64,000 bases of DNA from Thermoguttaceae bacterium (GTDB lineage Bacteria > Planctomycetota > Planctomycetia > Pirellulales > Thermoguttaceae), in the NCBI GenBank assembly GCA_039698035.1, contig JBDKSW010000019.1, positions 66,140-130,139 on the forward strand, written 5' to 3'. Numbering within the stretch: position 1 is the stretch's first letter; the number at the start of each line of letters is the position of its first letter. The notes under the pieces were generated by a model. It saw only the letters and a program-made list of their open reading frames with translations, did no database searches and was not told the origin of the DNA. The translations under genes and the position numbers were made by a program. Shown here one piece after another: positions 6,075 to 40,624 of this stretch.

Positions 6075-8279
6075 CTACCTCACGTCCATGTCGCAACTGA
6101 CGCCGCCGGCGGCCGGCAGGTAGCACTTGTGGACATAGTCGGCCACCATGCGGTCGGCACTGAATCGCCAGGCCAGCGAACTGATCGAGTTCATCATCCG
6201 CTTGATCCAGTGGCCCGGCAATCCGTCCACGTCGCGATCGTAATAAAGCGGAATCACCTCTTCGATCAGCACGCGGTACAGGTCGGCCGTGTCCCGGGCA
6301 TCGGTCACCCGCTCGTCCACGTGCGACGTGCCCTTGCCGATGGCGAACCCGTTCGTACCGTCGTAGGCCTCGGCCCACCAACCGTCAAGAATCGACAGGT
6401 TCAGCGCGCCGTTGAGGACCGCCTTTTGACCGCTTGTGCCGGAAGCCTCCAACGGACGCCGAGGGTTGTTCAACCACACGTCCACGCCCTGAATCAGGTG
6501 GCGACAGACGTTGATGTCATAATCCTCGACGAAGGCGATGCGACCGGCGAATCGCGGATCGTGCCGGAGGTTGGCGATTTTCTGGATCAACTGTTTGCCC
6601 GGCTCGTCGGCCGGATGGGCCTTGCCGGCAAAGATGATCTGCACGGGCCGCTCGGGGTCGTTGATCATCTGATCCAACCGATCCGGATCGTTCAGGATCA
6701 TCGCGGCCCGCTTGTACGTCGCAAACCGGCGTCCGAAACCGAGCGTCAAAACGTTCGGATCGAGAATGTTCCGAGCTGCCTCGACCGCCTCGTCACTCTC
6801 GCCGCGACGCCGGCACTGGCGGCTAGTCCGGCGGCGAACGAAGGCCAGCAAAAGGTTTTTCAGGGCGTAGTGCGTTTCCCAAAGCTCGCCGGGATCGATG
6901 TCGTGGATACCCTGCCAGACGTCCGGCTCGCCCATCCGACGCATCCAATTTGCCGGGAAATAGCGGTCGTAAAGCTGCTGCATCTGCCAGGCGAGCCAAC
7001 TTTCGATATGGACGCCGTTGGTGATGTGACCGATCGGGATTTCTTCCTCGACGCGCCACGGCCAGAGGTGGGCCCACATCCGCCGCGTCACGTGCCCGTG
7101 CAGATTGCTCACGGCATTCGCCCGGCGAGACAGCTTGAGGCCGAGCACCGTCATGCAGAATGTCTCGTGCTCGTTTTGCGGCTCGACCCGTCCGAGCCCC
7201 ATCAATTGCTCGGTCGAAATGCCCAGCTCGTCGCGCAGCGGTCCAAGATGCTCCTCGATCAGGTTGCGATCAAACCGGTCGTGTCCGGCCGGCACGGGCG
7301 TGTGCGTCGTGAAGACCGTCCGCTGCGCAACGTCGCGCAGGGCCGTGTCAAAGCTCATGCCGTCGTCCTTCATGCGGACCCGAATGGCCTCGATCGTCGC
7401 AAACGCGCTGTGCCCTTCGTTCAAGTGATAGACGCCCGGATGAATACCCAAGGCGCTGAGCGCCCTCATGCCGCCGACGCCGGCCACCATTTCCTGCCGA
7501 ATGCGCGTGCGATTGTCGCCGCCGTACAGCCGGGCGGTCAGCTCGCGGTCCTCGGGGCTGTTGCTCGGCACGTCGCAGTCCAACAGATAGAGCCGCACGC
7601 GACCGACGTTCATCAGCCAGACCTTGGCAAGCAGCCGGCCCTGCCGCGTATCAATCCGAACCGTGATCGGCTTCCCGTCTGGCCCAAGCGCGGGCGTCAT
7701 CGGCAGATTCTCGACCTTCGTGTCGAGATACTCCTCGCTCTGCCAGCCGTTGATGTCCAAGTGCTGCTTGAAATAGCCCTGATCGTAAAACAGGCCGACC
7801 GCAACCAGCGGGACGCCCAGGCCGCTGGCGCTTTTGATGTGGTCGCCCGACAACACCCCAAGGCCGCCCGAGTAGACCGGAATCGACTCGTGAACGCCAA
7901 ACTCGAGCGAGAAGTAGGCCACCGGCTTGCTGCCTAAGACGCCGGCGTGCGTCCGCCCCCAAGACGGCGTTTCAGCGACATATTCCTTCAACCGGCGATA
8001 CGCCTGATTGATGCGACTGTAGAGGACCAACTCGGCCGCCCGCATCTCCAATCGCTCGGGCGTGAATTCGGCCAACAGGGCGATCGGGTTGTGGTCGAGC
8101 TGGCGCCAGCGGATCGGATCGAGATCACGGAAAAGGTTGATGACCTCGGCGTGCCAACTCCACCAAAGGTTTCGGGCCAACGCAACACACTTGTCGTACT
8201 GCGTTTCAGCCGTAAGTCCAAAAGCCGCAGTTCGTTGCGGCAAGTGCATCGGAGGCGATTCGACCGGGCTCATACACAC
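6075..8279 (-). CDS. glgP: Alpha-glucan (glycogen/maltodextrin) phosphorylase, GT35 alpha-glucan family
   Basis: 734 aa. Motifs are LARNLWWSWH, YFSLEFG, YSGGLGVLSGDH, HLNEGHSAF, FTTHTPVPAGHD and the PLP-lysine region EASGTSGQKAVLNGALNLSILDGWW. The start could be any of three N-terminal Met codons. Confidence 0.85.
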   Translation of the reverse strand: MCMSPVESPPMHLPQRTAAFGLTAETQYDKCVALARNLWWSWHAEVINLFRDLDPIRWRQLDHNPIALLAEFTPERLEMRAAELVLYSRINQAYRRLKEYVAETPSWGRTHAGVLGSKPVAYFSLEFGVHESIPVYSGGLGVLSGDHIKSASGLGVPLVAVGLFYDQGYFKQHLDINGWQSEEYLDTKVENLPMTPALGPDGKPITVRIDTRQGRLLAKVWLMNVGRVRLYLLDCDVPSNSPEDRELTARLYGGDNRTRIRQEMVAGVGGMRALSALGIHPGVYHLNEGHSAFATIEAIRVRMKDDGMSFDTALRDVAQRTVFTTHTPVPAGHDRFDRNLIEEHLGPLRDELGISTEQLMGLGRVEPQNEHETFCMTVLGLKLSRRANAVSNLHGHVTRRMWAHLWPWRVEEEIPIGHITNGVHIESWLAWQMQQLYDRYFPANWMRRMGEPDVWQGIHDIDPGELWETHYALKNLLLAFVRRRTSRQCRRRGESDEAVEAARNILDPNVLTLGFGRRFATYKRAAMILNDPDRLDQMINDPERPVQIIFAGKAHPADEPGKQLIQKIANLRHDPRFAGRIAFVEDYDINVCRHLIQGVDVWLNNPRRPLEASGTSGQKAVLNGALNLSILDGWWAEAYDGTNGFAIGKGTSHVDERVTDARDTADLYRVLIEEVIPLYYDRDVDGLPGHWIKRMMNSISSLAWRFSADRMVADYVHKCYLPAAGGVSCDMDVR

Positions 8280-36564: not shown

Positions 36565-38088
36565 ATGGCCAAGCTGAGGGTAGACGATTTTATCGATCTC
36601 GTGCGTCGCAGCGGGCTGGTCGAAAAGGACCGCCTCAATGCGCTGCTGCGCGAGCTCAAACGCGAGGCCGGCGGCCACTCCATCAACGACACCGACTTCG
36701 TCGTTGCCCGGCTTGTCGAAGCCGGCATGTTGACCCGCTGGCAAGCCGATAAGCTGCTCGAAGGCCGCCACAAGGGCTTTTTCCTCGGCAAGTACAAGCT
36801 GCTCGACCATCTCGGCACTGGCGGCATGAGCATGGTCTATCTCGGCGAGCACGTGCTTATGCAGCGTCGCGTCGCCATCAAGGTGCTGCCGAAGAGCCGC
36901 GTCGAAGACACCTCCTACCTCGCCCGATTCCATCGCGAGGCCCAGGCGGCCGCCGCGCTCGACCACCGCAACATCGTCCGGGCATACGATGTGGACAACG
37001 ACGGCAATGTCCACTACCTCGTGATGGAATACGTCGACGGTCGCGACCTCCAGCACATCGTCACCGAGGACGGCCCGCTCGATTATATGACCGCCGCCGA
37101 CTACGTGCGACAGGCGGCCGCCGGGCTCGCGCACGCCCACCGAGCCGGTCTCATCCACCGCGACATCAAGCCGGCCAATCTGCTGATTGACCAGCGGAAC
37201 GTCGTCAAGTTGCTCGACCTCGGGCTGGCCCGCTTCACCGACGAGGACAAGGCGTCGCTGACAGTTGCCTTCGACGAAAACGTGCTCGGCACGGCCGACT
37301 ACCTCGCGCCCGAGCAGGCCCTGGACAGCCACGGCGTCGATGCCCGCGCGGACATCTACGGCCTTGGTTGCTCGATGTACTTCGCGCTGACCGGCCATCC
37401 GCCATTTGTCGGCGGAACGCTGCCACAGCGTCTGATGATGCACCAAAAGGAGCCGCCGCCGAGCATCTTGCTGGACCGGCCCGACGCGCCGCCCGACCTG
37501 ATCGCCATCTGCCTGAAGATGCTGGCCAAGAAGCCGGAGCAACGTTACCAGTCGGCCGGCGAGGTGGCCCACGCCCTGGGCCAATGGCTTCGCATGCACG
37601 GCGCCCAGGTCGAGTCCGGGAGCAACAGCGGTCTTTCGTCGGTCCAACTGGCTGGACAAGCCGCTGCGTTGCCCCGCGCGGAAGCCCTGGACAGCCAACG
37701 AGCGATGCCACGAGCCGTCGGCCTGCCGCCGGGCCGTCGAGCGACGGGCACCGAGCGTCCGCGCGGCATGCCCCCCCTGCCCGGCCGCCCCAACGCACTG
37801 AGCGATACCCTGCCGGGACAAGATCAGCCAACGGTCGCGGGCCCCGGGGCTGGCAGCCACCGTCTGCCGGTCGCCCAGTCGCTCGAGGACGACTCGTCGG
37901 AACAGGTGGTGAACACGGACATCGAACCACTGAAGTTTCGCAGACAGGCGGACTTGCTCATCGACACGCGGCTCGGCGTCTATCTGCCCCCCCGTCAAGG
38001 CATCCGCCTCCGCACCTGGCTAACAGCGGCCATCTGGACCCTGCTGGCCGTCGGGGCGGTGATTGTCTTCCGGGTGATTGGCCGCTAG
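36565..38088 (+). CDS. Membrane-anchored Ser/Thr protein kinase (Hanks type)
   Basis: The motifs are [33 protein letters not shown] and TADYLAPE. The C-terminal TM is [17 protein letters not shown]. Confidence 0.9.
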
Positions 38089-38109
38089 CGGCCGCGATGC
38101 CGCTAGCGG
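38082..38109. terminator. Twin 10-bp palindromes CCGCTAGCGG, a possible bidirectional terminator hairpin at a convergent junction
   Basis: CCGCTAGCGG lies at 38082-38091 and again at 38100-38109, with an 8-nt spacer. The copies can pair with each other to form a 10-bp stem. Each copy contains the TAG stop of one of the two converging genes. Confidence 0.4.
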
Positions 38110-38336
38110 TTTGGCGATGAGGACGCGCACATCTGGTCGCGCACGGCACCGAATCCATCTAGAATGATGCCAGACAGACACACGCAGCTCGATAAGATCA
38201 AGTAATTCTGCCTTGCGTTCATCAAGCTAAGGTGAGCAACGCGGCCTGGAAGCACCTCACTCGGCACAGAGCAGTCCATCGTTAGCGACAAGATGATTCC
38301 GAGAATGCCAGCCACGACGAGCAAATTGGCGACCAT
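38103..38336 (-). CDS. Small hypothetical membrane protein (77 aa, two hydrophobic helices), third gene of the AT-shifted cassette
   Basis: MVANLLVVAGILGIILSLTM...YLILSSCVCLSGIILDGF.. Its ATG directly abuts the TAG of the upstream gene. Confidence 0.45.
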   Translation of the reverse strand: MVANLLVVAGILGIILSLTMDCSVPSEVLPGRVAHLSLMNARQNYLILSSCVCLSGIILDGFGAVRDQMCASSSPNR

Positions 38337-38750
38337 CTACGCCGCCAGCAAGCGGGACATCTCGATTTCGCGGTCACCATACTCGGTAAGGTCGCTCGCA
38401 TAAGGCTCGACATCCGGCTTCGTAACCTGAGCCAACGCGACTGTCAAAAGCACGCCCAGCTTGATCTTGTGGTCGACGATGCCCACCCGAAACGCGCTGG
38501 CAAGTTCCAGAATACGCTTGACACCCTTGACCTCAAACCCAGCCAAGCGGCCATCGTCCATTGACAGGTAAAGCGTTACCCAGCTGTTGAGACGCTTGCG
38601 ATACGTGTCCGTGTCGCGAACGTAGAAGATGATCGAGTCTGCCCCGGGGGCGTAAAACGGCTCGGCCTTAAACGCGACCTTTTCATGCTGCTCGCCATAC
38701 TCCTGTGCAAGCGTGGCGATGTAGTCAGTAACGTTCATTGTGTCGGCCAT
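38337..38750 (-). CDS. Hypothetical protein (137 aa) with DUF2283-like core, second gene of the cassette
   Basis: YAPGADSIIFYVRDTD...LSMDDGRLAGFEVKGVKRIL resembles the DUF2283 pattern. Starting at 38750 gives a 16-nt overlap with the upstream gene. Starting at Met-5 (38738) gives an ATGA overlap. Confidence 0.6.
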   Translation of the reverse strand: MADTMNVTDYIATLAQEYGEQHEKVAFKAEPFYAPGADSIIFYVRDTDTYRKRLNSWVTLYLSMDDGRLAGFEVKGVKRILELASAFRVGIVDHKIKLGVLLTVALAQVTKPDVEPYASDLTEYGDREIEMSRLLAA

Positions 38751-39160
38751 AATCGTTCTCCGAAGCGGTTTGGGTCATCGTGGCCCACGGGCCAACCTAG
38801 ACATTGAGCGTCTGCCTGCTCCCACCCGTAGTTGATTACCTCAAAATCGTGATCGACGTACACGCAAAACGTGTACCCTGGTCGGATCGGAACCGTGACT
38901 CGAAGGTCCGATCCACTCGGGACCCCTGCAACGCAGTAACCATCATCAAACCCTGGTCGTTTCAGATCGTGCCACACGCCAGCGGGTCGCGCTAAAACCT
39001 CGGGCACAAGAAGCCCCGCCAGGTACATTCGCCAGTTCCCACTCTGTCGGTAAGCGTGCCGCAGCCCATCCCTCATGCCATAGGCTTGCGAGCCTTCGCC
39101 CGATGGATGCAGCCCTTGAAACGATGCCATGTCTAGTGGCGTCCAGGCGCGCAAGGGCAT
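38735..39160 (-). CDS. Hypothetical protein (141 aa), no family recognised, first gene of the cassette
   Basis: MPLRAWTPLDMASFQGLHPSGEG...GYTFCVYVDHDFEVINYGWEQADAQ... Its composition is protein-like. It lies downstream of a strong promoter. Confidence 0.6.
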   Translation of the reverse strand: MPLRAWTPLDMASFQGLHPSGEGSQAYGMRDGLRHAYRQSGNWRMYLAGLLVPEVLARPAGVWHDLKRPGFDDGYCVAGVPSGSDLRVTVPIRPGYTFCVYVDHDFEVINYGWEQADAQCLGWPVGHDDPNRFGERLWPTQ

Positions 39161-39231
39161 AGCTTTGTCTGCCTAATCCTAGAGTCTAATTGATGGCAGG
39201 GCAGAAGGGAAGTTCCCGAGTCGTACCGCCG

Positions 39232-39260
39232 ATTTTAACACCCCCCCGGCCAAGCGTCAA
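39232..39260 (-). promoter_or_regulatory. Near-consensus sigma70 promoter of the three-gene cassette (TTGACG-N17-TAAAAT, minus strand)
   Basis: The reverse complement of 39232-39260 reads TTGACG cttggccgggggggtgt TAAAAT. The leader of about 65 nt contains the inverted repeat GGGAAcTTCCC. Confidence 0.6.
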
Positions 39261-39559
39261 GCACCAATCTTAAAGAACTCCACGTTTCCGGCGATAGCCA
39301 CACGGTTGCGTGAATTCCGCGTTTCAAACTGACCCACCACCTGGCGTTTTGCCGCAATGCCGCGTCCGCACGCCAAATAGCCAAGAAATTCCGGCGGCCG
39401 GATGGCAGCGACTCTGGTTGGCTGGCAATTCTGCGTAGGTTTGAGAGGACAGGGAAGATTTTTGCCGTCGTGCCGAGATTGTCACTTCTCCGATTCCTTC
39501 CGCCGATTCACTAGGAATGTATTAGTTCGGCTATTCACTTCAGACAAGGGGGACACGTC

Positions 39560-40624
39560 ATGAAGACGTTCGTGCGCGCTACGATGGCGCTAACAGCAGC
39601 CATCGCCTTGTGTCAGGGAAGCCTGGCGCTGGCTGAGGATTACTACTGGGTATCCGGCGGCGATCAGACCGCCACGGCCGTCGCTGAGCAAAAAGCTCCC
39701 GCGGCCAATCCCACGACGGCTGGCGTCTGCAACGATCAATCCTGCTGCGATCCGTTCTCCAACGACTGCGAGCGGCGCGGCGGCGTGATCGGCCAATTCG
39801 GCTTTGATTCGTTTAAGGGCATTAGCGATGCGCCCGGCGCAAGCAACTTCGGAGCGGTCACCGGCTTCAACCTCGGCTGGCTGCTGCCTGGCGAAGCCGG
39901 CGACCGTGGCCTGGGATTCCAGCTCGGCATGACCTATGGTCTGTACGACTGGGACGGACGCACGGCGCCCCTAGGCTCGACGGTCAACGAAGCCAAAAGC
40001 CAACAGCAGACGTTCCTGACCATCGGTTTCTTCCGTAAGTCGGACGAAGATCACCCGCTGAGCTTCGGCTTGGTTTACGACTACATGTTCAACGAAGGCT
40101 GGGGCGAGTACGCCACCAGCCCGACCCTTGGCCAATGGCGTGGCCAGATCGAATGGGCCTTCAACGAGAACAACGGTTTGGGTGCTTGGGGATGCCTGCG
40201 TGATCGCGATGCCTACAGCACGATCGACTACTCGTCGGTCACTCGCAACCGCAGTGTTAGCCAAGCGAGCTTCTTCTGGCACCACAAGTTCGACTACCCG
40301 GCGCAGAGCTGGCTGTGGGTCGGCGCTCCGCAAACCGATCGCCTGAACGGCGAAGGCAGTCTCTATGGCTGGACCATCGGCGGCGCCTTGCAGGCCCCCA
40401 TCACCGACCGGTTGGCCTGGTACGGCAACTTCGAGTATGCCCGCCCGACCGCCTCGGCTGGCTCGGTCGCTTCGAGCGAGAGCGCTTGGAACGTCGGCAC
40501 CGGAATCCTCTGGTACTTCGGCGGCGGCGCCCACACGCACCAACTCAATGGCGAGCGTTGGACCCCGTACATGCCGGTTGCCAACAACAGCACCTTCCTG
40601 GTGGACCAGCAGACCGGAATCTAG
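39560..40624 (+). CDS. Secreted porin-like / outer-membrane beta-barrel candidate with N-terminal Cys cluster
   Basis: The signal peptide is MKTFVRATMALTAAIALCQGSLALA. An AAGGGGGA SD lies 7 nt upstream. The protein has CNDQSCCDPFSNDC, then alternating aromatic/Gly-rich segments (GFQLGMTYGLYDW, LSFGLVYDYMF, WYGNFEYARP, GTGILWYFGG). Confidence 0.6.
   Translation: MKTFVRATMALTAAIALCQGSLALAEDYYWVSGGDQTATAVAEQKAPAANPTTAGVCNDQSCCDPFSNDCERRGGVIGQFGFDSFKGISDAPGASNFGAVTGFNLGWLLPGEAGDRGLGFQLGMTYGLYDWDGRTAPLGSTVNEAKSQQQTFLTIGFFRKSDEDHPLSFGLVYDYMFNEGWGEYATSPTLGQWRGQIEWAFNENNGLGAWGCLRDRDAYSTIDYSSVTRNRSVSQASFFWHHKFDYPAQSWLWVGAPQTDRLNGEGSLYGWTIGGALQAPITDRLAWYGNFEYARPTASAGSVASSESAWNVGTGILWYFGGGAHTHQLNGERWTPYMPVANNSTFLVDQQTGI

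Follow-up and report, generated by a model that had tools for sequence, protein, structure and literature searches.

Overlapping two-gene modules with a DUF2283-type protein as the downstream partner are of a kind already known from annotation. We retrieved 23 annotated DUF2283 genes from plasmids and examined six of them (65–78 aa). In four of the six, the gene directly upstream of DUF2283 encoded a toxin of the DUF4258, RelE/ParE or HicA type, in agreement with an earlier note on the DNA studied here, which had described DUF2283 as the small partner in two-gene antitoxin-like modules. Here we describe a gene pair of this general layout, A and B, from a 64,000-nt stretch (hereafter the window) of a Thermoguttaceae metagenome-assembled genome (MAG). 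The two genes overlap on the minus strand, and the downstream protein, B, carries a core with remote homology to DUF2283. The A family, the enlarged architecture of B and a fusion of A to a SEFIR domain are described in no library or paper searched; the earlier note had called the module undescribed, and the word holds only in the sense that none of the libraries searched names the family.

The spacing of the plasmid pairs varied from a 4-nt overlap in two DUF4258–DUF2283 pairs and a 20-nt overlap in the RelE/ParE pair to a 68-nt gap in the HicA pair. The fifth DUF2283 gene was preceded by a small unannotated gene, and the sixth had no annotated gene directly upstream, with a separate RelE/ParE–HTH pair further upstream. 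DUF4258 toxins belong to the RelE/ParE superfamily with the BECR fold (PMC11980606). For DUF2283, a sequence search found no solved structure, and the family does not appear in those supplementary files of the NetFlax paper that were searched. The "DUF2283" assigned to FseA/QseM in 2015 (PMC4755241) was considered as a functional clue and rejected, being a misprint for DUF2285, the name used in PMC10359603. The other described system of relevance is that of the bacterial SEFIR proteins, which are enriched in defence islands and of which one protects against phage phi29 (bioRxiv 10.1101/2022.05.11.491447).

The earlier note, made from the letters alone, had proposed a cassette of three minus-strand open reading frames (ORFs). 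All three ORFs were confirmed, and they are listed here together with the core of B.

38735..39160, minus strand: gene A, 141 aa, the upstream, toxin-slot member of the pair, from an unnamed family of ~140-aa proteins.
38337..38750, minus strand: gene B, 137 aa, the obligate downstream partner of A, with a 16-nt overlap.
38508..38660, minus strand: DUF2283-like core of B, residues 31–81, found by hhalign.
38103..38336, minus strand: ORF C, 77 aa, an orphan ORF with two hydrophobic segments, outside the conserved module.

The conserved unit is the A–B pair. In 12 of 12 neighbourhoods, the gene after A lay on the same strand, overlapped it by 4–40 nt (mostly 13–40 nt) and encoded a protein of 132–146 aa. 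These neighbourhoods were the window, a 3.9-kb JGI contig, L001, L002/L003, L004, L005, L009, L016 with its 13.8-kb contig, the P0007 contig, L017–19, L020 and L022. The downstream gene was confirmed as a B homologue in every neighbourhood with sequence available. The arrangement looked for in type II toxin–antitoxin systems, a small, adjacent, co-oriented and overlapping pair of conserved genes, was therefore found at all 12. The distribution is also patchy and of a mobile type, since the neighbours differ from locus to locus, the pair is absent at the syntenic site of a relative (L007, see below), and IS1-like genes (of the insertion sequence, IS, type) accompany it at L001 and L017. Judged by this conservation, A and B are real, conserved genes.

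An exhaustive profile search placed A in a family of 151 representative clusters at E ≤ 1e-3, nearly all of them single-domain proteins of ~140 aa. Three of the 151 (P0006, P0016 and P0076) were rejected as relatives, as they are large repeat proteins whose low E-values came from summed weak repeat scores that vanished with a deeper profile. A and P0003 align over their full length without gaps at 59–61% identity. A word-indexed search returned one close relative each for A and B, both on the 3.9-kb JGI contig. The earlier note could place A in no family, and neither could we: gene A matched nothing in Pfam, NCBIfam or PADLOC, no family of these libraries was matched by 60 A-family members apart from the SEFIR part of P0121 (the sole PADLOC match in the family), and the A-family profile had no match in the PDB. 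No relation was found between A and B or between A and DUF2283. Conservation in A falls mainly on Gly, Pro, Trp and Phe, together with R68, C76, Y77, E114, D117 and R132. The exact A product, with any of three possible starts, is not in a collection of 15 billion proteins, although the gene is intact and conserved. The exact C sequence (two starts) is not in this collection either, so that only B is apparently annotated in the public MAG record, in which gene A appears unannotated.

In that record, B is a hypothetical protein (MEN6459650.1; source, the Thermoguttaceae MAG) in a 133-aa form starting at Met-5. The ATGA overlap of Met-5 with the A stop codon, which the earlier note had pointed out, does exist and matches this call by NCBI. 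However, we favour the start at 38750, with its 16-nt overlap, because the closest B homologue retains the N-terminal "MA" of that start, a 16-nt overlap recurs in 6 of the 12 neighbourhoods, and a GGAG lies 9–12 nt upstream. A programmed −1 frameshift fusing A and B was considered and rejected; B lies in the −1 frame, which makes the fusion geometrically possible, but the overlap holds no slippery heptamer. B was acidic in 10 of 10 pairs, with an isoelectric point (pI) of 4.6–6.8. It had no match in Pfam, PADLOC or NCBIfam, and a PADLOC-DB 2.0 search returned nothing for A, B or C.

The earlier note had remarked on a resemblance of B to DUF2283, and this resemblance stands as remote homology between profiles while failing the Pfam model of the family. 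When 11 B sequences were aligned by hhalign with the six annotated plasmid DUF2283 proteins, the probability was 80.6% (E 1.3e-5, score 33.9). Column-shuffled controls scored 10.4 ± 2.5 with a maximum of 18.7, which puts the observed score ~9 standard deviations (sd) above them. The probability rose with the number of B sequences used, from 55% with seven to 74% with nine and 81% with 11. Residues 31–81 of B align in register with DUF2283 positions 3–53, that is, with the whole ~49-residue domain. In contrast, Pfam DUF2283 (PF10049; gathering threshold 23 bits) gave no match at E ≤ 1 for the B proteins of the window and L009, and none at E ≤ 5 for five B homologues. A self-written, consensus-like DUF2283 query, checked against Pfam, scored 90 bits over the full model. 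Proteins of the B family have 132–146 aa, compared with 65–78 aa for canonical DUF2283, and differ by an additional helix at the N-terminus and by ~55 extra residues at the C-terminus.

One member of the A family is fused to a recognizable effector domain. P0121 (426 aa, locus L009) has an N-terminal match to Pfam SEFIR/TIR_2 and to PADLOC bSEFIR (E 1e-49), the latter spanning positions 37–197 of a 412-position profile, and its C-terminal end is an A domain (hhalign 99.7%). Downstream of the P0121 gene comes an overlapping B homologue, and upstream of it a second TIR gene, which matches ThsB-like and PDC-S66 models. Neither the C-terminal part of this second TIR protein nor the middle of P0121 showed any relation to A or B. 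In defence proteins, the C-terminal end is the usual place of the sensing domain.

In the window, the pair lies on a segment of atypical composition.

38089..39430, no strand: insert, compositionally atypical and window-specific, between the kinase stop codon and a conserved upstream element of the DUF6666 gene.

This segment has a G+C content of 0.572, compared with 0.636 for the 64-kb window. In sliding-window G+C and k-mer analyses, which were run within the window, it was the lowest-G+C 1.3-kb stretch (−3.3 sd), and its tetranucleotide distance was in the top 0.6%. The drop in G+C that the earlier note had counted by hand was reproduced, with 28/60 (27 in the note) at 38161–38220 and 30/60 at 38821–38880, against 42/60 at 38041–38100. 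As the note had also said, the neighbouring genes are unrelated to the cassette, being those of a Ser/Thr kinase (Pkinase) and a DUF6666 protein, and no tRNA is nearby; there is none in the whole window. No Rfam family was matched in 37500–40000.

The sole syntenic relative found was L007, a Planctomycetaceae MAG, with kinase and Wzz-type proteins ~80% identical to those of the window and a DUF6666 protein 62% identical. A, B and C are not shared by all relatives at this site, since none of them lies between the kinase and DUF6666 genes of L007. There, the conserved DUF6666 upstream element lies within ~90 nt downstream of the kinase stop codon, and two tandem DUF6666 genes come next. By blastn, window positions 37643–39430 have no DNA counterpart in L007, and the match restarts at 39431. 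The compositional outlier, the patchy distribution and the absence from L007 make insertion in the window's lineage a more likely history than loss in L007, the one relative compared, and the cassette is thus probably an inserted accessory element, as the earlier note had supposed. Insertion scars were looked for at the edges in the form of target-site duplications and terminal inverted repeats, and only short repeats at chance level were found; a 13-nt repeat occurs at 38091 and 39351, where ~1 such repeat is expected by chance. A check for a remnant of the DUF6666 paralogue inside the insert found none.

Elsewhere, the pair occurs in varied company. At L005, it lies between a Cas3 operon and HicB-like genes with a CRISPR-associated kinase-like gene. 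On the P0018 contig, it adjoins DUF3037/HipA_2, Mrr and a type I restriction–modification system. At L001, IS1-like transposase genes and repeats flank it on both sides, and an IS1-like gene is nearby at L017. Defence, toxin–antitoxin or IS genes were thus found within ~5 kb at L005, L009, the P0018 contig, L001, L017 and possibly L020, and no such genes within that distance in the window, L002, L004 and L022. The A family is rare, with ~150 clusters that are mostly single metagenomic contigs, and scans of metagenome contigs (with B, then A) and of genome contigs (with A) gave no match. Clues to lineage come from two loci, the Thermoguttaceae MAG of the window and L005 with its planctomycete-type neighbours, and both point to planctomycetes.

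We read A–B as a horizontally acquired two-gene conflict module of the toxin–antitoxin or abortive-defence kind, and consider this reading about evenly poised between right and wrong. It is favoured because the pair is obligate and overlapping, B is acidic and DUF2283-like, DUF2283 genes lie downstream of plasmid toxins, A occurs in a SEFIR fusion, some neighbourhoods hold defence, toxin–antitoxin or IS genes, and the segment appears to be inserted. With the fusion and these neighbourhoods elsewhere, the toxin–antitoxin or defence-like interpretation of the earlier note is still the best available. The A–B operon would have been acquired on a ~1.3-kb segment that landed between the closely spaced kinase and DUF6666 genes. 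The gene overlap would couple translation, so that B is always made alongside A, and the acidic B may bind, restrain and neutralise A through its DUF2283-like, beta-rich core. A would be the restrained partner, either a toxic effector itself or a trigger-sensing domain that can also be attached to a SEFIR/TIR effector, and the pair may have a role in phage defence. ORF C would have arisen at the edge of the insert and would have no part in the mechanism. We tentatively extend this to a wider proposal, which is somewhat improbable as it stands: the DUF2283 fold would be a promiscuous antitoxin domain for at least four unrelated partners (DUF4258, RelE/ParE, HicA and A), and A a new toxin or trigger-sensing fold that is also joined to a SEFIR/TIR NAD-targeting effector.

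Several observations weigh against a conflict module. A shows no similarity to any known toxin in PADLOC, Pfam, NCBIfam or PDB, and hhalign comparisons with DUF4258, RelE/ParE and HicA gave probabilities of at most 1.2%. The candidates for functional residues in A are limited to R68, Y77 and R132 and form no clear catalytic motif; the median pI of the family, 6.2, is not that of basic proteins. AlphaFold runs from two-sequence alignments yielded no usable model (mean predicted local distance difference test, pLDDT, 43 for A and 39 for B). The link of B to DUF2283 is remote and below Pfam's own model, and no experimentally shown function of DUF2283 was found in the literature searched. B has no recognisable DNA-binding domain (no HTH, RHH or AbrB match for the window protein and five homologues), and the leader upstream of A has no significant operator palindrome. 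The SEFIR fusion is a single case among ~150 A clusters. Defence, toxin–antitoxin or mobile genes accompany about half of the 12 neighbourhoods, a sample too small for statistics. Finally, no copy was found in viral contigs (IMG/VR) scanned with two A clades, nor in GenBank phages and PLSDB plasmids searched by tblastn with A and B.

The earlier note had counted C as a third component, which would make the locus a tripartite abortive-infection cassette with C as a small membrane effector or a holin-like protein; on present evidence we regard this as very unlikely. No gap separates the TAG of B from the ATG of C (TAGATG), none of the other five frames is open at the position of C, its G+C content at third codon positions (GC3, 0.68) is above that at the first and second (GC1 and GC2), and it has two hydrophobic stretches (maximum Kyte–Doolittle value 2.56 over 17 residues). 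C may be translated, although its codon score is +0.04, the best at its position but weak compared with 0.39 for B, and an open frame of 77 codons has, as a rough estimate, a ~5% chance per frame at the local G+C content. However, C has no homologue at E ≤ 0.1 among 5.8 billion clusters, no counterpart downstream of B at any other locus examined, where no small hydrophobic ORF is consistently present, and seemingly no annotation by NCBI. Neither the three-gene module nor the membrane effector survives this comparison: the hydrophobic segments are there, but conservation and co-occurrence are not. As C is absent from all other loci, the A–B pair functions without it, and its distribution marks C as a lineage-specific orphan of this locus, outside the conserved system.

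Two further explanations keep the pair and change the roles of its members, and we consider each of them unlikely. In one, the main rival, A is a sensor or adaptor and not a toxin; B caps A until a trigger is bound or released, which switches on an effector, and this effector is present in cis in the SEFIR–A protein, whereas stand-alone pairs have it in trans or lack it. The placement of the A domain behind SEFIR in P0121, with B kept, agrees with this, as do the want of a catalytic-looking conserved motif and the non-basic character of A. However, the fusion is one example, stand-alone proteins of ~140 aa with no consistent effector gene nearby make up more than 140 of the ~150 clusters, and a sensor without an effector has no output. 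In the other, A–B is a non-conflict accessory pair, such as a small enzyme (or a binding protein) and the chaperone or regulator that goes with it, or serves mobile-element maintenance or anti-defence, and is mobile by happenstance. In its favour, both proteins lack a match among known toxin, antitoxin and defence models, and the neighbours in the window, L002, L004 and L022 are ordinary metabolic or regulatory genes. Yet strict overlap, a DUF2283-like partner, a SEFIR/TIR fusion, patchiness and repeated closeness to restriction–modification, CRISPR, HicB and IS elements are typical of conflict systems.

Some of the loci with an A–B pair hold other features. At L001 (4045–8301), two IS1-like transposase genes, or fragments of such genes, enclose the pair, and there are a direct repeat of 300 nt (79% identity) and several copies of the 27-nt repeat CTCATGCCGTCATTCTAGCGGCGGATT, a layout that resembles a composite transposon or an IS nest. 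Two unrelated contigs, L017 (2573–3385, minus strand) and L020 (544–1334), carry near A–B a small ORF paired with an Xre-type HTH_3 gene, an organisation like that of toxin–antitoxin systems; the small ORF has the motif GGLRK.R...GKxxGxRVCY...YPKxxxDDLS and no Pfam match. At L020 (1–4769), the A–B pair ends a run of ~12 tightly packed, co-oriented small genes (60–150 aa; one HTH_3 and one DUF7736), a segment that resembles part of a prophage or mobile element; the L020 DNA has no match in GenBank phages. At L004, the full B gene is followed after ~100 nt by a second, N-terminally truncated B-like ORF (7012–7320) with the core motif RLTDHITLYLSLEDDSIVGCRVKGISGI, which is a duplicated or decaying copy of B.

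The signals around the cassette in the window are the following.

39232..39260, minus strand: sigma-70-like promoter TTGACG-N17-(TGt)TAAAAT, a consensus match upstream of A.
39207..39217, no strand: palindrome GGGAAcTTCCC in the leader of A.
38082..38109, no strand: hairpin CCGCTAGCGG-N8-CCGCTAGCGG at the left edge of the insert, an inverted repeat with 100% complementarity.
39390..39402, minus strand: terminator-like hairpin (TCCGGCCGCCGGA and a T-rich tail), a pattern match only, just inside the right edge and upstream of the cassette promoter.

The near-consensus promoter of the earlier note is present as a sequence, with 10 of 12 consensus matches and a TG extension, and is a putative promoter, predicted from the consensus match alone. 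Two promoter-like sites were observed in the region, compared with 0.6 ± 0.8 in shuffles; the second match, at 39485–39458 on the minus strand, overlaps the DUF6666 upstream element. The inverted repeat GGGAAcTTCCC that the note had seen in the leader is also present, but its size is at chance level, 5+1+5 palindromes being expected ~1 per 200 nt, and the regions upstream of homologous A genes conserve nothing comparable. At the left edge, the palindrome CCGCTAGCGG has two exact copies in the window, 8 nt apart, against 0.12 expected. One arm holds the TAG of the convergent kinase gene and the other the TAG of ORF C, and the hairpin may be a bidirectional terminator or a junction made by the insertion.

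On the other side of the insert, an element GGGAAGATTTTTGCCG...GTGCC.AGATTGTCA at window positions 39443–39490 is conserved upstream of the DUF6666 gene, and the same element occurs upstream of both tandem DUF6666 paralogues of L007 (8620–8690 and 9890–9960); it is probably a DUF6666 promoter or operator. The two tandem DUF6666 genes of L007 (8737–11073 and 13812–16004) stand where the window has one such gene and the cassette. By tblastn, the DUF6666 and Wzz matches in L007 are divided among different frames, which suggests frameshift errors of the MAG assembly, or pseudogenes.

If A–B is a working toxin–antitoxin or defence module, A would be a new effector or sensor family without a relative in Pfam, NCBIfam, PADLOC or PDB, and the pair would offer the first functional handle on DUF2283, a small, widespread domain encoded downstream of several toxin families. 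The SEFIR–A fusion would be a direct test system for the control of a SEFIR/TIR effector by B through the A domain. Among described systems, the bacterial SEFIR system (Millman et al. 2022; PADLOC bSEFIR) is similar through the N-terminal domain of P0121 only; bSEFIR is a single gene, whereas the A family always has B downstream, and the A protein of the window has no SEFIR/TIR domain. Panacea/PanA (DUF4065; PMC8832971 and PMC10440598) is a conceptual analogy in which one small neutraliser fold is combined with several unrelated upstream partners; it has no sequence relationship to DUF2283, for which neutralisation is putative. The plasmid pairs of DUF2283 with DUF4258, RelE/ParE or HicA, which are putative type II toxin–antitoxin systems, differ from A–B in that their upstream toxins are unrelated to A, their DUF2283 proteins have half the length of B, and their overlaps are shorter than those of A–B, which are mostly in the range given above. 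They nevertheless share with A–B the gene order, in which an upstream partner is followed by a DUF2283-type protein, as well as small proteins, close or overlapping genes and mobile contexts.

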